From: a virus
Virus genome (UHGV): UHGV-0072281
Length of the DNA stretch: 64,000 bases
Reading direction: 5' to 3' (one strand)
Shown here in pieces: positions 4,333 through 33,924 of this stretch. The position numbers and the translations under genes were made by a program. The first letter of the stretch is position 1, and each line of letters starts with the position of its first letter. Under the pieces are notes generated by a model, which ran no database searches, had not been told where the DNA came from, and was given only the letters and a program-made list of their open reading frames with translations.

Positions 4333-4839
4333 ATGAGTGAGACTCTGGATTTTAATCAGCTCGAACAACACGATTTTGATCTCGGTGTTCGTGATATCGA
4401 TGCTGATCATGAAACACGTTGTAAAGAGCTGTTTAACCGTTACGGTCAGCTCATCACCGGTGCCTCTGATGACACCGAATTCAGTTTAGATGAGTTTGAA
4501 AAAGTTTTGTCGTGTTTTATCACCGATTGCCTGGCGAAGAAAGCGTTACTTGTAGAACTGAACTTAGACTCCGTCGAACCTACCGATGCCCACGCGGTGT
4601 TGAAAGAATCCATTATCCCAACTGATGAGATTATGGACACGGTAGCAGGTATTCGTGGTACGTTTGAAACCGCTGTAGATGAATACACGGAACAGCTTCG
4701 TGAGTCAGGACTGACGTTGTGTGCGCCAGCAGGCGAGCAATTACCGTCCGACGCAGAAACTGAAGAAGCGCGTAGCCGCTTAGCACGTTATGTTATCACG
4801 TCTATCTTGGTAGATGATCGCGAAGAGAATCTGCTGTAA
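4333..4839 (+). CDS. Hypothetical acidic protein
   Basis: 168-aa ORF, very acidic; followed by terminator. Confidence 0.6.
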   Translation: MSETLDFNQLEQHDFDLGVRDIDADHETRCKELFNRYGQLITGASDDTEFSLDEFEKVLSCFITDCLAKKALLVELNLDSVEPTDAHAVLKESIIPTDEIMDTVAGIRGTFETAVDEYTEQLRESGLTLCAPAGEQLPSDAETEEARSRLARYVITSILVDDREENLL

Positions 4840-8763: not shown

Positions 8764-9294
8764 GTGATAGCGAGACTTATGAGTTGGTTTAAGCAATGTC
8801 GGGCAAAGGCGGTCGAATGGCCGCCTATTACGCACGATGAAAAGGTGGTTGCTTTTCTGAATTATAACAAAGACTTGAAGAGATTAGGCGAGTTAATGCG
8901 CTTAACGGAATGTCAGGTTTTTGCTAAGATTTCAAGTAGTGCTTTACGTAAACAGGTAATTCCCTACCTATCCTTTTCAGGGCAGGTTTATGCAATAACA
9001 GCAGAAGAATTTTTATCGATGGTGGGCAATGAAACCCCACGTATACGGTACTCGGTTGCGGGTTCATCTGATGCGGTCGGTACAGTTGATTTCGGACGGT
9101 TGTATCAGAGCATTAAAAGTGTGGGGCATATACATGTTAAGCGATTATCAGAAACTTCTGTAGTGATTTATCATCGCACTGAGCACGATTTGTTAGGGTG
9201 TGTTATAAGGCTAACAAATTTACATAGTTTTTACGTTGATTTACTTACAGAGTTTTATCCAGAATCATGGTGCTATATAGATGAAAATAAATGA
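8764..9294 (+). CDS. Hypothetical protein
   Basis: 176-aa ORF; GTG 8764 or ATG 8779 start, unresolved. Confidence 0.5.
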   Translation: MIARLMSWFKQCRAKAVEWPPITHDEKVVAFLNYNKDLKRLGELMRLTECQVFAKISSSALRKQVIPYLSFSGQVYAITAEEFLSMVGNETPRIRYSVAGSSDAVGTVDFGRLYQSIKSVGHIHVKRLSETSVVIYHRTEHDLLGCVIRLTNLHSFYVDLLTEFYPESWCYIDENK

Positions 9295-9493
9295 CGGATA
9301 TATCATCTCAGCAATTGTTTCAACTGCGTTGATTGTAGCGATGTTGATGTTCTACGTTAAGACGTTCGACGAATCACGTAGAGAGTCCCTTTATCGTGAA
9401 TGTATGTCAGGTACTACTGTAGATAACCCACGTTACGCTGAATTAGTAATGGCGTGTACGGAATACGCTAAACGAATGGGAGGCGGACGATGA
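9281..9493 (+). CDS. Small membrane protein (one predicted TM helix)
   Basis: 70-aa ORF with hydrophobic stretch IISAIVSTALIVAMLMFYV. Confidence 0.5.
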   Translation: MKINDGYIISAIVSTALIVAMLMFYVKTFDESRRESLYRECMSGTTVDNPRYAELVMACTEYAKRMGGGR

Positions 9494-9687
9494 AAATTTG
9501 GTTGCCGATTGTAGTTTTTATCCTTATCGCAGGGGCACTAGCGAACGCCGAGTACGAGAGTCGTGTTTTAGAAACGAAACGCATGTTGTATCTGAATTGT
9601 ATAAAGGATTATACACCAGGCACAGAGCTTCATGCACAGGCTGTAAAAAGCTGTGCATTGATGGCTGAATCACAGACTCGCTCCTAA
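9490..9687 (+). CDS. Small membrane or secreted protein
   Basis: 65-aa ORF; N-terminal hydrophobic segment WLPIVVFILIAGALANA; ATGA overlap. Confidence 0.5.
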   Translation: MKIWLPIVVFILIAGALANAEYESRVLETKRMLYLNCIKDYTPGTELHAQAVKSCALMAESQTRS

Positions 9688-28239: not shown

Positions 28240-29088
28240 ATGTCTCTTACGTCAAAACAGAAACTGCTAAAACTCATCAACACTGAAAACAATATTAGTC
28301 CACCGTTGACTTTCAGTGATGTTGATATCGGAGAACCTACTGGTACTGGGGTTGATACCCAGGTGGTTCTGACCTCTAAACTCAAAGGCGATGAGTCTAC
28401 TACTTTAACAGTGACTTACCACCGTCGTAATTTACCTGACTACTTAACCGGTGAGTTGGTTTTCGGTAACGACAGTGTGGTAACCGCATCAGATTTGCTT
28501 AATGCGATCAACGCAAAATACAACCTAAATATTTTACCCTCGGATATCGTTGACGCAAAAGTTGAAGGTGAAACCCATCAGCTTACCGCTAACGAGAAAT
28601 CTTACGAGTGGTGCGGTGTAGTAACACTTACGCTGCGTGATCCTATTGACCTGACTGAACTGTTACCAGTTACTCAATTAGAGAATCTGGTAGAGTATCC
28701 GTCCACTAAGAAAGGTAACGCTGCGGTTTATTCTCACCCGATCGATTTCACCGCAGAAAAAGATTACCTTGACCCGATTACTATCAACGACACCGTAGAC
28801 TTGGTCGAGTTAGCCGCTAAACTGGATGGCGTCGTTGACGAGAAATGGGTAAGTGTGCCTAAGAACGCGACTAACAACCTGTACGGTGCGAAGGTTATTT
28901 ACGATGGCCCAACCGCAGGTTACGAAGGCGCAAATACGAAGTTCACTCGTGTGTTGGTGCTGACGCTCAGCCCGCTGTGTTCTAACCTGACAGGTAATCT
29001 GTTAATCCACTTTAACGGTACCGATCGTCCGAAGTCGAAGATTGAATTAGCACAGACTAATCCGGTCTTACCGGGATTCTTAGATTAA
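28240..29088 (+). CDS. Hypothetical protein, fibre-adjacent-type paralogue family
   Basis: 282-aa ORF; N-terminal region similar in pattern to 29102 and 32238/32820/33394 family. Confidence 0.55.
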   Translation: MSLTSKQKLLKLINTENNISPPLTFSDVDIGEPTGTGVDTQVVLTSKLKGDESTTLTVTYHRRNLPDYLTGELVFGNDSVVTASDLLNAINAKYNLNILPSDIVDAKVEGETHQLTANEKSYEWCGVVTLTLRDPIDLTELLPVTQLENLVEYPSTKKGNAAVYSHPIDFTAEKDYLDPITINDTVDLVELAAKLDGVVDEKWVSVPKNATNNLYGAKVIYDGPTAGYEGANTKFTRVLVLTLSPLCSNLTGNLLIHFNGTDRPKSKIELAQTNPVLPGFLD

Positions 29089-29101
29089 GAGGATTACAGT
29101 A

Positions 29102-29581
29102 ATGACCAATCAAGAAACTATCTTCGACCTTATTAAAAAGGCTAACCCAGACGCTGAGTTCGACACCACCAAAGTCACACTGGGTGACCCGGTCGTAACC
29201 ACCGGTACGTACAATACCGAAATCACAGTTGCGTCAATTAAGAATCTCGGTTATACTAACGAACAAACGTTCCAGTATAACCGGATCGACGCAGGTTTGT
29301 ATTTCCTGAACGTATTACCGAAACTGTTGGTGGAATCGGCAACAACGACCGCTGACTTACTGCCTGTCATTAACGAGCAGTACAGCCTAACCCTTACAGA
29401 AGACGATGTATGGGTAGAGCAGGTTGGTGAGTTACCGTTAGACGGAAGCGCAATCGAACACGGTATTTTCTTCCGTCCTGAGTGTCTGACCTGGGTTGGC
29501 GGTTTTACAGTGCGAGTTGCGCGTAAACCGGCTGGCGCTACGCCACCCGAGACGGGGGCTCGCGCTAAGAAGAAAAAATAA
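29102..29581 (+). CDS. Hypothetical protein, same family
   Basis: 159-aa ORF, GAGGA RBS; basic C-terminal tail ARAKKKK. Confidence 0.55.
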   Translation: MTNQETIFDLIKKANPDAEFDTTKVTLGDPVVTTGTYNTEITVASIKNLGYTNEQTFQYNRIDAGLYFLNVLPKLLVESATTTADLLPVINEQYSLTLTEDDVWVEQVGELPLDGSAIEHGIFFRPECLTWVGGFTVRVARKPAGATPPETGARAKKKK

Positions 29582-29585
29582 TTAC

Positions 29586-29620
29586 AGGGTGGGGTAATCC
29601 CCACCCTCTTTTCTTTTTTG
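29586..29620 (+). terminator. Rho-independent terminator
   Basis: Hairpin agggtgggg-taat-ccccaccct followed by T-run. Confidence 0.8.
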
Positions 29621-29643: not shown

Positions 29644-30234
29644 ATGGCTGAACGTTGGACTAAAGAAGGTATTATTGAATCCAAAACCGATTTGGAAGGT
29701 GGGTACGTAAACGACCCTGACGACAAAGGTGGAGAAACCTGTCACGGGGTAACCTTAAAAACTGCACGCGAGTACGGATACACAGGGAAAATGAAAGACC
29801 TAACGCGCGCACAAGCGTTTGATATTTACGATCGGGGTTGGTGGAAGAAACTCAAACTCGATGAAATTTTCGCTATCTCACCGTTACTCGCAGACCGGAT
29901 GTTTGATTTTGGTATTAACGCAGGGCGTGCTAACTGTGTGAAATCGTTACAACGTATTCTCAACGTTTTAAACAACGAAGGGAAACTTTACGCAGATATT
30001 GACACCGACGGCGGTATGGGTCCTAAGACACTGGGTGCGTTGAACGCGTACCTGAAATATCGTAAAGATGAAGGATTGAGCATTTTAATCTTTGCGTTAA
30101 TCTCTCACCAAGTAACTTACTACACGGAAATCTCCGAAAAACGTAAGAGAAACGAGAAATACACCTACGGCTGGTACGCACGTGTGTTTAGAGAAATGGC
30201 AGATTATACGGTAAAAGCGGGATTAGTAAAATGA
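29644..30234 (+). CDS. Endolysin, glycoside hydrolase family 108-like with C-terminal peptidoglycan-binding region
   Basis: N-terminal motif EGGYVNDPDDKGGETCHGVT matches GH108 signature (EGGY..DP.D.GG.T..GIT); C-terminal W/G-containing region. Confidence 0.75.
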   Translation: MAERWTKEGIIESKTDLEGGYVNDPDDKGGETCHGVTLKTAREYGYTGKMKDLTRAQAFDIYDRGWWKKLKLDEIFAISPLLADRMFDFGINAGRANCVKSLQRILNVLNNEGKLYADIDTDGGMGPKTLGALNAYLKYRKDEGLSILIFALISHQVTYYTEISEKRKRNEKYTYGWYARVFREMADYTVKAGLVK

Positions 30235-30335
30235 ACTGGTTTGCTAAACTCTTAGCGTTATTGTGGAAAGCGTTAACGTCTGGTCGAAAACGTAAAGACG
30301 AAAAACGTGGGCAAGAGTTCTTCTGGTTTTTGTAA
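30231..30335 (+). CDS. 34-aa amphipathic/basic peptide (MNWFAKLLALLWKALTSGRKRKDEKRGQEFFWFL), candidate lysis accessory
   Basis: ATG overlaps endolysin stop (ATGA); too short for ORF track; hydrophobic N-half and highly basic C-half. Confidence 0.35.
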   Translation: MNWFAKLLALLWKALTSGRKRKDEKRGQEFFWFL

Positions 30336-30350
30336 GGAAAGGTGTGGGTA

Positions 30351-31016
30351 ATGGAGAAGCTTCAATATAAACGTTTAGACAATAAGTGGTTTGTATTAAC
30401 GGAGGATTACCATTATCCGTTTACGTTACGTGAGATTTATCACGACCACGTACACTTAGACCGTGCGGTTTATTTAACGGGTGTATTGCCTGACACGCAA
30501 CTGTGGTTAACAGCACCTAAAGGGTTCGTTACTGATTTAGCGTCAATTCCTGAACACCTCCAGGGAATTTTCCATCCTGACGGACCGTGGGCACCTGCGG
30601 CCTGCATTCACGACTTACTGTATCAAAAATGTAACACGGAGCGTAGCTATCCCATGACACCGGGTGGTAACGTTTCGCGTATTATCGATAAAGAGTTCTC
30701 TGACTTAACATTCCTGCGTATTATGCAGTCGTTGGAAATCTCACCGTATATCTGCCAAACGTTTTATAAAGCCGTGGCGGGGTTCGGTTGGGATGCTTAC
30801 GTAGACCCTAACGCGAAACCGTCTTATACCACTAACGATTACCGTACGTTAGATTACAATCGAAACTATTTGTTCGTTCGTGAGTTTAAGGAGCCTGCTA
30901 TTCCTGACCACGAACGTGTTGATATCACCACAGGTTGTCCCGTTAATGTCAAATACCTGAACATCAAACGGGCTTTTCTGTCTGGGAGGGAAGATGTTTC
31001 ATCCAAATCCGAGTAA
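30351..31016 (+). CDS. DUF1353-like protein
   Basis: Motif FVTDLASIP resembles the TDxASIP block of DUF1353 (from memory); ATG 30351 with AAGGAAAGG RBS (track begins at GTG 30342). Confidence 0.45.
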   Translation: MEKLQYKRLDNKWFVLTEDYHYPFTLREIYHDHVHLDRAVYLTGVLPDTQLWLTAPKGFVTDLASIPEHLQGIFHPDGPWAPAACIHDLLYQKCNTERSYPMTPGGNVSRIIDKEFSDLTFLRIMQSLEISPYICQTFYKAVAGFGWDAYVDPNAKPSYTTNDYRTLDYNRNYLFVREFKEPAIPDHERVDITTGCPVNVKYLNIKRAFLSGREDVSSKSE

Positions 31017-31509
31017 CTTTAAACTCAAAGAGTTAGTACCACAATCGTACATCGCCAAATACGGTGATTCTGCAATTCGGTTTATGAACCCGTTGTTAAT
31101 GATCTCCCTACAACAGATTCGTAACCGTTTCGGCAGAATGGTGATTAACTCGTCTGCTGCGCAACAGCGTGGCCTAAGAACCTTAGACTTTTTCATCAAC
31201 CAAGAAAAGCCTAAGGGTGGTAACTATAAACAACGTGCGTTACAACTCTACTCTGATTCAGGGAGTCAACACAAGTTCGGTAATGCATTTGACGCGACAC
31301 TGTTAGACTCAACGGTAAAACAAGTCCACGACTATATCGCCGCTAATCCTGACGAATTTCCGTTCATTCATTTTATCGAATGCGACATCAGTTGGTTGCA
31401 TATCGACGTTCGTAACCAACCGAATATCACGTTCTGGTCACCGAATCGCGGTACTGTGAAAGTCGTGAAACAAAGCCCTATCGATTGGAGCGCCTTAGTT
31501 AAAATCTAA
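30994..31509 (+). CDS. Peptidase M15-like cell-wall hydrolase (L-Ala-D-Glu endopeptidase / carboxypeptidase fold)
   Basis: Motif SQHKFGNAFD fits the Zn-binding S.H..G.A.D block of M15 peptidases; GGGAGGG RBS. Confidence 0.5.
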   Translation: MFHPNPSNFKLKELVPQSYIAKYGDSAIRFMNPLLMISLQQIRNRFGRMVINSSAAQQRGLRTLDFFINQEKPKGGNYKQRALQLYSDSGSQHKFGNAFDATLLDSTVKQVHDYIAANPDEFPFIHFIECDISWLHIDVRNQPNITFWSPNRGTVKVVKQSPIDWSALVKI

Positions 31510-31579: not shown

Positions 31580-31625
31580 CAAAATAAGCCTACCCTCCTG
31601 CTAAGCAGGAGGGTATTTATTATTC
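31580..31625. terminator. Bidirectional rho-independent terminator between convergent genes
   Basis: Hairpin accctcctgc-taa-gcaggagggt flanked by A-run upstream and T-run downstream. Confidence 0.75.
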
Positions 31626-32099
31626 TACCGGGTGCAGCATAGTGCCGGTATCCGGAATGCTGCCTTCGTGACATCTGAAGAACGTTACACCTTTACCTTC
31701 ACCCGTTTTGTAGCTGATGCTAGAATAGGCAAACGTTGGGGTTTTTGACAGTAACCCGTTTACACGGTAATAGCGCTCACCGGTAACGACGTTTAAGTTA
31801 CTGTCCACCTTACCTAACAAATCTTTATAAAGTTGCGGAGATTCGATTTTACCTTCGTTCCATGTAGCGACCCAATTCGCCCCTGTATCCATGACTAACA
31901 CCGAAAGGGGCATCAGTTTTAGACTAGACGGTACCGGTTTAAAATCCACGAATTCTTGAGAAGCACCTGTACAGGTGTAAATGACCATATCGTGTTGGTC
32001 AACAGGTACGGTGGAGAACTGACCTTCTGCGTTCGGCTGAATAGCACAACTTGCCAATGTCATTACAAAAGCAACGACCACGAGAATGCGTTTTAGCAT
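31620..32099 (-). CDS. Putative lipoprotein
   Basis: N-terminus MLKRILVVVAFVMTLASC has signal peptide plus lipobox-like LASC; lone minus-strand gene among plus-strand genes. Confidence 0.6.
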   Translation of the reverse strand: MLKRILVVVAFVMTLASCAIQPNAEGQFSTVPVDQHDMVIYTCTGASQEFVDFKPVPSSLKLMPLSVLVMDTGANWVATWNEGKIESPQLYKDLLGKVDSNLNVVTGERYYRVNGLLSKTPTFAYSSISYKTGEGKGVTFFRCHEGSIPDTGTMLHPVE

Positions 32100-32237
32100 A
32101 ATCTCACCCTTATTAAAATTAAGAAAAAATATTTTTTCAGGTTAGCGCCTACTGCCAACCGTCATATCTATATTTTACGAAATGTCTAAAATAACATTCT
32201 TATGCAATCCACCCCTACCACTTACGAGGTAAAAACG

Positions 32238-32768
32238 ATGGCTAAAGCCTTCAATCAGCAGCTTATCGAAGCTGTAAAAGCCAAAAACCCTGAAACTTCT
32301 TCTAATCTAACCGTAGAAGACGTTGACTTTGGTGCCGTGGAAGCACATAGCGGAAATGGTGGCCGTAACACCAAAGTTACGCTGACTGCAAAAGAAGAAA
32401 GTGCTAACTTTACTGGCAGCAAAGAATTCCACTACACTCGTCTGGCTTCCCAAGACTTGATCGGTGCCAAAGCTTACGAACAAGCTGGTAATCTCGATCT
32501 GGAAAACTCAGCCATCGTAACCAAACTCAACGAAGAAATGGTTACTAAAGGTTATACCGACGACGCGTTTGTCGAAAATGAACTGACAATTGAGAAAACT
32601 GACGGCGATAGCGGTGCTAAAGTTTACACTATCAAAGTAAAAGATGCCCACATCAAATTCTTGACCGGCACCATTGCCACTTTCACTTATACCAACCCAG
32701 CGCCTGAAAAAGTAGCCCTTAGCGGTCTGGAAGGTGAACTTGATGGCTTCACAGCCCCAAAAGACTAA
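32238..32768 (+). CDS. Hypothetical protein, first of three tandem paralogues
   Basis: ATG 32238 with GAGG RBS (track begins 32202); shared core ..NTKVT(L/M)TA...S.NF.G...(L/F).Y.RL....GELDGF(T/K). Confidence 0.6.
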   Translation: MAKAFNQQLIEAVKAKNPETSSNLTVEDVDFGAVEAHSGNGGRNTKVTLTAKEESANFTGSKEFHYTRLASQDLIGAKAYEQAGNLDLENSAIVTKLNEEMVTKGYTDDAFVENELTIEKTDGDSGAKVYTIKVKDAHIKFLTGTIATFTYTNPAPEKVALSGLEGELDGFTAPKD

Positions 32769-32819
32769 TGCTTTAACAACCAAACTAAGGCGGTAAATCC
32801 GCCTTATTAGGAGAAAAAA

Positions 32820-33359
32820 ATGGATAGTCAAGCTACTAACCAAATGCAGCTAGTCGAGTTATATAACGCTGCCAACACTGGTTTGCCGCACAAATTGGTG
32901 TCGTCTGAAGTAAAATTTGGTCTGCCCTCTGCAAACGACGACGGTGAAAAAAATACCAAAGTTACAATGACCGCTTTACCCGGCTCAGAAAATTTCCGTG
33001 GTCAGATTGAACTTAAGTACGACCGATTAAACCCCTCCATAATTTCTGATTCTCTGGGAGTGGTCAAACTCGAGGGGGAGATAGAAAAATGGCGGGAAGA
33101 TAACTATGTTCGCGCCTATCTGCAACATTATATTAACCAAGTAAAACCCAGAGACACAATAGCCACAGGCGATATTGTTTATAGTTACGAAGAAGTAAAA
33201 GAACAGGATAAACTTGTCGCACTACGAGTTACCTGCACTGTCGCTGAAAGAAACCATAAATATCTGCAAGGCGTAATGCTTGTCTTTGAAGTTAGTCCAG
33301 AAAAGATCGATCTTTCCACCACTAACGGAGAGTTGGACGGCTTTAAACCGACCGAGTAA
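32820..33359 (+). CDS. Hypothetical protein, tandem paralogue
   Basis: 179 aa; strong similarity to 33394 gene (QM.LV.LYNAANTGLPH...KNTKVTMTAL.GSENF.G.IELKYDRL). Confidence 0.65.
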   Translation: MDSQATNQMQLVELYNAANTGLPHKLVSSEVKFGLPSANDDGEKNTKVTMTALPGSENFRGQIELKYDRLNPSIISDSLGVVKLEGEIEKWREDNYVRAYLQHYINQVKPRDTIATGDIVYSYEEVKEQDKLVALRVTCTVAERNHKYLQGVMLVFEVSPEKIDLSTTNGELDGFKPTE

Positions 33360-33393
33360 CCACTAACAACCAACTTTTATAGAGATTAAATTA

Positions 33394-33924
33394 ATGGCAG
33401 CTACTAACCAGATGATGTTGGTCGCGTTGTATAATGCTGCTAATACTGGGCTACCGCATCAGATTACTGATAAAGAAGTGTCCTTTGGTCAACCTGTTGC
33501 GCTGGAAGGCGAAGGTAAAAACACCAAAGTTACCATGACAGCATTGGCGGGTTCCGAAAACTTTAAAGGCTCAATCGAACTGAAATACGATCGACTGGAA
33601 CCGGGTGTTGTAGGGCGTATTGAACTAACTGACGATCTGTCTCGTTGGGTAGAAGAGAACGAACTGCGAGCCTGGTTACAGTATTATATCAACAAAGTAA
33701 AACCTAACGACACGATCGCGCCGGGAGATGTTGTTTATTCTACAGAAGACCAAAAAGACGAGCATGAAAACGTTACTCTGCGAACAGTAACGTGTACCGT
33801 TACCGAAAGAAACCTCCGTTATAAACCAGGTGTAATGGCAACTTTCGTAATTACACCGAAGGTTGTCGATAATCGTATTGACCTGGCCACCACCAACGGT
33901 GAATTGGACGGTTTTACTGCTTAA
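33394..33924 (+). CDS. Hypothetical protein, tandem paralogue
   Basis: 176 aa; see previous. Confidence 0.65.
   Translation: MAATNQMMLVALYNAANTGLPHQITDKEVSFGQPVALEGEGKNTKVTMTALAGSENFKGSIELKYDRLEPGVVGRIELTDDLSRWVEENELRAWLQYYINKVKPNDTIAPGDVVYSTEDQKDEHENVTLRTVTCTVTERNLRYKPGVMATFVITPKVVDNRIDLATTNGELDGFTA

Follow-up and report, generated by a model that had tools for sequence, protein, structure and literature searches.

Lysis by phages of Gram-negative bacteria is explained by holin, endolysin and spanin, and the disruptin is the single known outer-membrane alternative. The typhoid-toxin islet of S. Typhi is among the closest described parallels to the genes considered here: its ttsA and ttaP genes (PMC6996933, PMC11525133) encode a GH108/PG_binding_3 muramidase and a DUF1353 protein, both lacking secretion signals and both belonging to one five-gene islet. 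TtaP, the founding member of the DUF1353 family and the one in which sn-2 phospholipid hydrolysis has been demonstrated, is a phospholipase A2 (PLA2), a distant relative of the group XIV secreted PLA2s with catalytic residues H70, D71 and D85 (Gartly et al. 2024, PMC11525133). It is highly active in lysates, and its overexpression in E. coli leads to minor growth differences only. In vitro, TtsA-dependent toxin release requires an added agent that perturbs the outer membrane, for example an antimicrobial peptide. Here we describe a unit of four genes at positions 29644 to 31509 of a 64,000-nucleotide (64-kb) stretch, the window, of the virus genome UHGV-0072281. The unit has homologs of both accessory toxin-islet genes, with a gene for a cationic amphipathic peptide between the two enzymes and a gene for an M15-type peptidase after them. 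These genes are already in GenBank from SPN3US-like phages, mostly as "hypothetical" or "tail assembly chaperone"; what is new is their reading as a module, a lysis cassette variant that would combine a TtsA-like endolysin, a TtaP-like phospholipase and a disruptin-like peptide.

The islet differs from the phage unit in that it releases toxin without cell killing and has neither a small peptide gene nor an M15 gene. The phage DUF1353 protein is also about 100 amino acids (aa) longer than TtaP, owing to residues inserted between the catalytic His and Asp and to one more domain at the C-terminus. The second gene of the unit recalls the disruptin gp28 of phage phiKT (Holt et al., bioRxiv 10.1101/515445), which is likewise a small cationic protein with a predicted amphipathic helix, encoded among lysis genes in a phage with no recognisable spanin. 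The net charges are +5 for the window peptide and +7 for gp28, and both fit a screen for proteins shorter than 80 aa with a charge of at least +4. The two differ in that gp28 has 56 aa and three basic clusters and has been shown to complement lambda Rz/Rz1, whereas the window peptide is a candidate; no sequence kinship between them is expected. Unlike gp28, the window peptide directly follows an endolysin without an export signal, and its target might be the inner membrane instead. Mycobacteriophages offer a looser likeness, as the gene for their lipid-cleaving enzyme LysB lies by the endolysin gene and its product removes an outer lipid barrier as the final step of lysis. LysB, however, is of the serine esterase/cutinase type and cleaves the mycolyl-arabinogalactan linkage of mycobacteria, so that fold, chemistry and host envelope are all unrelated to those considered here.

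The unit and its boundaries comprise the following features:

29586..29618, + strand: intrinsic terminator with a GC-rich 9-bp stem (29586-29607, 7 GC pairs) and the T-run tail CTTTTCTTTT

29644..30234, + strand: endolysin, a GH108 muramidase with a PG_binding_3 domain, homolog of TtsA and Sen1395 by Pfam, PHROG and PDB sequence matches

30231..30335, + strand: 34-aa cationic amphipathic peptide MNWFAKLLALLWKALTSGRKRKDEKRGQEFFWFL, a candidate membrane-active lysis factor by selection, synteny and charge

30351..31016 (open reading frame from GTG 30342), + strand: predicted phospholipase A2 of the DUF1353/TtaP family, by Pfam match, catalytic residues and fold

30994..31509, + strand: M15/LAS-fold zinc peptidase, a predicted second peptidoglycan hydrolase by zinc ligands, fold and Pfam matches of its relatives

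31591..31615, both strands: bidirectional intrinsic terminator with an 11-bp stem

In sensitive blastn searches against phage records, the region aligns with the jumbo myophages SPN3US (Seoulvirus) and phiEaH2 (Erskinevirus) at 65-70% nucleotide identity. Phages of this group infect Salmonella, Erwinia, Cronobacter and their relatives. Megablast of the region against the phage records gave no match, so that no near-identical sequence was found among deposited phages; several IMG/VR contigs (107-225 kb) hold near-identical sequence. The window amounts to about 28% of a genome of about 225 kb. All four open reading frames (ORFs) were found at the coordinates given by a first-pass annotation made from the DNA letters, and its call of a lysis module that has two distinct peptidoglycan hydrolases is borne out by the Pfam matches to GH108 and by the family evidence for M15. 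The upstream terminator closes a set of structural genes and is the 5′ boundary of the lysis unit, and the downstream one ends both this unit and a convergent lipoprotein gene. Between these two strong terminators the ORFs overlap or are closely spaced. From this arrangement and the homologies below, we think it an even call that all four are transcribed late as a single unit and serve as the phage’s lysis cassette, unlike the canonical holin-endolysin-spanin set. We rejected a recent insertion of the module from a foreign source, as its GC content has no anomaly. The unit is set among five paralogous DUF7941 genes (window 28240-29581 and 32202-33924). In SPN3US the head paralog family has 17 members, the last of which is gp154, and the counterparts of the flanking genes, gp152-155 and gp160, are virion proteins.

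The first gene is, by homology, that of a TtsA-like GH108 muramidase without an export signal, and a close homolog of TtsA. Both of its domains exceed the curated Pfam cutoffs, which confirms the initial GH108 assignment by hidden Markov model: Glyco_hydro_108 (PF05838) scores 83.2 bits against a cutoff of 21.2 (1.9e-23) and PG_binding_3 (PF09374) 61.4 bits against 24.6 (9.8e-17). The protein also matches phrog_315 (endolysin) at 2.9e-43 and, among PDB sequences, 6v3z at 7.6e-45 and 6v40 at 3.2e-44, the structures of Sen1395 and TtsA, respectively, for which the catalytic triad has been described (PMC6996933). The N-terminal catalytic Glu lies in an EGGY motif with the conserved acidic/Thr segment downstream of it, and the segment LEGGYVNDPDDKGGET aligns with the catalytic segment of TtsA and Sen1395. 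The position of TtsA D19 is occupied by Asn in the window endolysin and likewise in the aligned Sen1395. A hydropathy scan of the endolysin found no signal peptide, SAR domain or transmembrane (TM) segment.

The third gene is probably the most informative of the module and is predicted to encode a TtaP-type PLA2. The ATG at 30351 is more likely to be its start than the GTG at 30342, as it has the Shine-Dalgarno sequence AAGGAAAGG upstream, agrees with the N-termini of homologs and leaves a 15-nt spacer after the peptide gene. The first-pass annotation had called this protein DUF1353-like, and Pfam agrees (PF07087, 8.1e-15, 54.7 bits against a curated cutoff of 22.5); it had, however, treated the protein as a bystander and missed its kinship with PLA2s. 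That kinship is visible in H90, D91 and D121, which do not vary among 27 aligned relatives of the protein. His and Asp are 15 residues apart in the short members of the family, as in TtaP, and the window protein has a 16-residue insertion at this place as well as a C-terminal extension specific to jumbo phages. The best fold match is a group XIII/XIV secreted PLA2 (1LWB, 4AUP). A profile search against PDB sequences gave no match, and no TM segment or signal peptide was found in the hydropathy scan. We rejected the label “tail assembly chaperone” (PHROG 1158) for this family in view of the neighbouring endolysin and peptidase, the PLA2-like fold and the invariant catalytic residues. This label, or “tail assembly-like protein”, looks like an inherited mis-annotation that originated in loci where tail-fibre genes adjoin DUF1353, as they do in Francisella phage KIRK.

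A link between DUF1353 and phage lysis was not found in the papers on this domain that were read, but the neighbours of DUF1353 genes in other phages point to one. All four unrelated annotated phages inspected have an endolysin (peptidoglycan hydrolase) or a holin within a few genes of DUF1353: Fusobacterium phages phiRTG5 and FNU_1P, Pseudomonas phage Cygsa01, with an adjoining GDSL lipase, and Caulobacter phage DMCA, with an adjoining M15 peptidase. For a broader sample, 59 non-jumbo IMG/VR loci with DUF1353 were reduced to 31 non-redundant clusters, and the two ORFs on each side were scanned. Endolysins and holins are the commonest recognised families at these positions. By Pfam they comprise Peptidase_M15_4 (4 ORFs), Phage_holin_4_1 (3) and GH108, SLT, M15_3, Amidase_3, Muramidase and GTA_holin_3TM (1 each), and by PHROG several endolysin families and one holin family, with tail-fibre families appearing once or twice each. 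Neighbours positive for a hydrolase number at least 9 among the 31 loci, against a rough expectation of 2-3 by an informal estimate that assumes random placement in a genome of about 50 genes.

Between the two enzyme genes lies the 34-aa ORF, whose ATG overlaps the TGA of the endolysin gene (ATGA), so that its start is coupled to the endolysin stop, and which leaves little of the gap to the DUF1353 gene unfilled. Dozens of ORFs of this size occur in the region, so that one of 34 aa is by itself no more than chance, and the case for this one comes from purifying selection and syntenic relatives and not from its length. L011, one of the near-identical contigs, is identical to the window across the ORF, and L005 differs there at one base, synonymously. 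L006, the most diverged member of the window clade, differs here by 10 synonymous and 2 nonsynonymous changes (dS 0.82, dN 0.025), and the other two frames of the stretch show no excess of synonymous change. The resulting dN/dS of about 0.03, compared with 0.05 for the endolysin gene and 0.07 for the DUF1353 gene, shows that constraint on the peptide is as strong as on its neighbours. Judged by these substitutions, the ORF that the first-pass annotation had noted across the endolysin stop is a genuine conserved gene under selection at the amino-acid level. A single-sequence exhaustive search of 1.84 billion representatives returned one 34-aa cluster at 94% identity (P0075, called as a gene) and nothing else, so the peptide family is either narrow or too short to be traced by sequence.

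The peptide had been described as having a hydrophobic N-half and a basic C-half, which is roughly right; more exactly, residues 2-15 make up an amphipathic helix, which is followed by the basic linker GRKRKDEKRG and then by the aromatic tail FFWFL, and the net charge is +5. The hydrophobic moment over residues 2-15 is 0.51, and Lys6 and Lys13 lie on the hydrophobic face. It has the descriptive features of a disruptin candidate in being shorter than 80 aa, with a charge of at least +4 and an amphipathic helix, and in being encoded among lysis genes. These properties give it the physical chemistry of a membrane-active factor and make it a candidate lysis factor. The initial suggestion of a membrane-active factor is supported by the conserved gene and its chemistry; no TM segment is predicted. 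A −1 frameshift at A_AAA_TGA, which would fuse the peptide to the C-terminus of the endolysin, was also considered; the slippery context is present in phiEaH2 and the window clade but absent from SPN3US, pEa_SNUABM_29 and SPAsTU, and we dropped it as a general mechanism.

ORFs in the same slot, with an ATGA or GTGA overlap on the endolysin stop, are found in Seoulvirus (SPN3US, SPLA3, pEa_SNUABM_29, SPAsTU) and Erskinevirus (phiEaH2, Asesino). The slot ORF is annotated in phiEaH2 (gp076) and Asesino (gp172) and not in the SPN3US RefSeq record. The kinship of the window peptide with these peptides is based on synteny, on the ATGA/GTGA overlap and on a short motif, M-x(0-2)-N-W-F-x-x-L-x(6)-A-L followed by an R/K cluster, in which NWF..L..AL is invariant. 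Motif, basic cluster and amphipathic periodicity are retained over three lineages, the window clade, Seoulvirus and Erskinevirus. The peptides of the relatives carry charges of +5 to +8 and an arginine stripe at i/i+4/i+7, LMRALWRALVFAMR, with a hydrophobic moment of about 0.7. This first peptide (A) is followed in the relatives by a second amphipathic one (B, “..DSGFFKLLRAIFxRRV..”) in another frame, overlapping the end of the first, and Seoulviruses have a third, which is 29-30 aa long and has one TM segment. All three Seoulvirus slot ORFs are conserved (4339-4629 in the SPN3US locus L001, 4582-4839 in L003 and 2730-2996 in L012); the SPN3US RefSeq record leaves all three unannotated, and some are annotated in SPLA3, pEa_SNUABM_29 and SPAsTU.

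In a DNA alignment the C-terminal EFFWFL of the window peptide falls on the GFFKLL core of peptide B, and the window peptide therefore looks like a compacted fusion of A and B, although the alignment is suggestive only. In Machinavirus (Machina, L014 2888-3004) and Wellingtonvirus (Wellington, L015 2870-2983) the slot is filled by unrelated peptides, 37-38 aa long and with one TM segment each, whose ORFs overlap the start of the DUF1353 gene and look like a non-orthologous replacement of one small membrane protein by another. At least one small membrane-type peptide is thus encoded between GH108 and DUF1353 in every lineage that has this arrangement. The window clade, Seoulvirus and Erskinevirus have amphipathic cationic A/B peptides there; those with a single TM segment, 29-38 aa long, are found in Seoulvirus, Machinavirus and Wellingtonvirus.

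The fourth gene, whose first 23 nt lie within the 3′ end of the DUF1353 gene and which has a GGGAGGG Shine-Dalgarno sequence upstream, is that of a predicted M15/LAS zinc peptidase with intact metal ligands. Its initial assignment as M15-like holds at the level of the family and not for the window protein itself, which alone stays below the curated Pfam cutoff (14.8 bits against 23.2). Of its 17 close relatives, 12 match PF08291 (best 6.8e-8) and 8 match PF13539. The zinc ligands lie in SQHKFGNAFD (H93...D100) and WLHID (H136, D138), are invariant in 17-19 sequences and give the H-x(3-6)-D pattern with a distal His, and the protein has the LAS fold. No TM segment or signal peptide was found in its hydropathy scan. 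The gene is missing from Erskinevirus, Machinavirus and Wellingtonvirus and present in Derbicusvirus; it is accessory, since several sister genera lack it.

With three enzymes that have neither a signal peptide nor a TM segment, something must let them out. Hydropathy and PHROG scans of the 64-kb window revealed no small multi-TM holin and no spanin pair, which upholds and widens the first-pass remark that none was recognised nearby. The few TM ORFs of the window that are not overlapped by others have no match to a known holin or spanin PHROG, and the literature searched had no description of a holin or spanin in SPN3US-like phages; a genome paper on such a phage reports neither.

From these elements a possible course of lysis can be drawn. 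The peptide would accumulate on the cytoplasmic membrane and permeabilise it, and might in addition weaken the outer membrane in the manner of the phiKT disruptin; permeabilisation would give the three soluble enzymes access to the envelope. The muramidase would then cut glycan strands and the M15 enzyme peptide stems, for quick and full breakdown of the sacculus. Intact cells would tolerate the phospholipase, just as E. coli tolerates TtaP, and the enzyme would hydrolyse membrane phospholipids after the envelope is breached, so that the outer membrane fails without spanins. That TtaP is tolerated in intact E. coli yet active in lysates fits an enzyme that acts only after such a breach. On homology and gene context, we give about half of our credence to the overall picture of a lysis operon whose peptide and phospholipase attack membranes. 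A bolder version, which we put forward as speculative and rather unlikely, is that SPN3US/phiEaH2-like phages lyse with no holin or spanin at all, the coupled peptide breaching the inner membrane and a latent cytoplasmic TtaP-type PLA2 dismantling the membranes, and that ttsA/ttaP is the domesticated remnant of such a cassette. If true, phages of Gram-negative bacteria would have their first described lipolytic lysis enzyme, and TtaP would gain a function as the outer-membrane-permeabilising partner of TtsA.

Several observations weigh against the overall picture. The peptide has no TM domain, with a maximal 15-residue Kyte-Doolittle mean of 1.11 against a threshold of 1.6; it thereby lacks the one feature that all holins share, and we do not file it as a holin. 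Deletion of ttaP in S. Typhi has no envelope phenotype. The module is embedded among virion-protein paralogs. Derbicusviruses have DUF1353 and M15 without an adjacent endolysin or any small peptide; in Phobos (L016) and CR5 (L017) the overlapping DUF1353/M15 pair lies directly 3′ of a DUF4376-type gene, with no GH108 adjacent. At 80 bacterial chromosomal DUF1353 loci from species-representative genomes (L024-L103), the commonest neighbours are caspase (Peptidase_C14, 10 ORFs), CHAT (6 ORFs) and TPR proteins, and no lysis genes are prominent, which rules out DUF1353 as a universal lysis gene. Because the lysis-gene context does not extend to bacterial chromosomes, DUF1353 is better called a lipid-attacking effector domain of several settings, phage lysis cassettes among them. 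The chromosomal combination of DUF1353 with caspase, CHAT and TPR genes, frequent in loci from many diderm phyla, resembles a module for defence or programmed death in which a protease is joined by a phospholipase. Finally, the lysis cassette of phiKZ is canonical, its holin being of class III and its spanin of the two-component kind (Manohar et al. 2026, PMC12894885), and the main uncertainty is that a holin and spanins may be encoded outside the 64-kb window.

If so, a canonical holin and spanin pair would do the membrane work, and the peptide, phospholipase and M15 enzyme would tune the speed, timing and completeness of lysis, the peptide for example as an antiholin-like or endolysin-regulating factor. 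We regard this as the less probable but still serious explanation. The precedent is phiKZ gp141-gp144 (PMC12894885), which resembles the window module in its clustered lysis genes, in coming from a related group of jumbo myophages and in its soluble endolysin that needs help across the inner membrane. That cassette consists of a class III holin with a single TM domain, an i-spanin/o-spanin pair, a cytoplasmic regulator and a transglycosylase endolysin, none of which is recognisable in or beside the window module, where a peptide, a phospholipase and an M15 peptidase are found instead. The fraction of the genome examined (64 kb of about 225 kb), the lack of a TM domain in the peptide and the dispensability of M15 in sister genera all leave room for a distant canonical set. 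Lysis genes usually cluster, however, and nothing like a holin or spanin lies in or beside the terminator-bounded unit, nor has either been reported for SPN3US-like phages in the literature searched. Moreover, the slot between endolysin and DUF1353 always has a small membrane-type peptide, although the types are not homologous, and this is the pattern expected of a holin-like function.

A different division of labour had been proposed in the first-pass annotation, in which one of the two hydrolases serves virion entry, and it can be extended so that M15 and possibly the phospholipase are carried in the virion and act at entry, with GH108 as the sole true endolysin. This has some appeal given the DUF7941 virion-protein paralogs around the module, the tail-fibre genes at times beside DUF1353, as in KIRK, and the observation of SPN3US gp158 (M15) at a low level in some preparations and not in tailless particles (Thomas et al. 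2016, main text). A later paper, however, found only traces of gp158 in one mutant and none in wild-type virions, and deemed them probably non-specific. The spectral counts for SPN3US virions (Thomas et al. 2016, Table S4) list gp152-155 and gp160, with the flanking gp155 and gp160 abundant, and lack gp156 (endolysin), gp157 (DUF1353), gp158 and gp159 (lipoprotein). Co-transcription with the endolysin, as indicated by the flanking terminators, the absence of M15 from three related genera and the rarity of tail-fibre families near viral DUF1353 compared with endolysins and holins point the same way. We therefore consider a division between lysis and entry improbable; the data fit M15 as an accessory lysis enzyme better than as a conserved virion component, though it may still be a low-copy tail enzyme. 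Slighter still is the chance that the 34-aa ORF is only a translational coupling device or a leftover of longer A/B peptide genes, with a functionless product. The ORF is indeed shorter than the A-plus-B arrangement of the relatives, with which it aligns as a fusion and truncation, and the search of 1.84 billion proteins found its own cluster only. A functionless product is hard to reconcile with the selection on the amino-acid sequence shown by 10 synonymous against 2 nonsynonymous changes (dN/dS about 0.03), or with the NWF..L..AL residues, basic cluster and amphipathic periodicity kept across three genera.

Beyond the downstream terminator lies one further feature of note:

31620..32099, − strand: predicted outer-membrane lipoprotein (lipobox LASC, Cys18), convergent with the operon

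It matches phrog_9559 (unknown function) at 4.7e-68, and its lipobox is kept in the four related lineages in which a homolog was aligned (SPN3US gp159 and the homologs of pEa29, phiEaH2, Asesino and Wellington). The gene itself is conserved beside the lysis unit in the window clade, Seoulvirus, Erskinevirus and Wellingtonvirus. We rejected it as an o-spanin or u-spanin, as it is a lone minus-strand gene with no upstream partner on the same strand and no C-terminal hydrophobic segment or TM domain. It shares the bidirectional terminator with the lysis unit and could act in superinfection exclusion or in an envelope role; a link to lysis is uncertain. Elsewhere in the window, the plus-strand ORFs 9281-9493 and 9490-9687 encode proteins of 70 and 65 aa joined by an ATGA overlap, each with one N-terminal hydrophobic segment and two Cys in the tail. 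They have no PHROG match, are the only paired TM candidates in the window and are possible membrane proteins.

The preferred reading, a lysis operon whose peptide and phospholipase attack membranes, would reassign DUF1353 genes from “tail assembly chaperone” to probable lysis-associated lipases. The muramidase, the M15 peptidase, the small bacterial-type PLA2 and the 34-aa cationic peptide are candidate antibacterial or enzybiotic parts. The phage operon unites a muramidase and a phospholipase with a peptide of the membrane-perturbing type that TtsA needs in vitro, which suggests a hypothesis for the role of TtaP. A cassette of endolysin, phospholipase and a peptide like a cationic antimicrobial peptide would be a further way for phages of Gram-negative bacteria to breach the membranes of their hosts.

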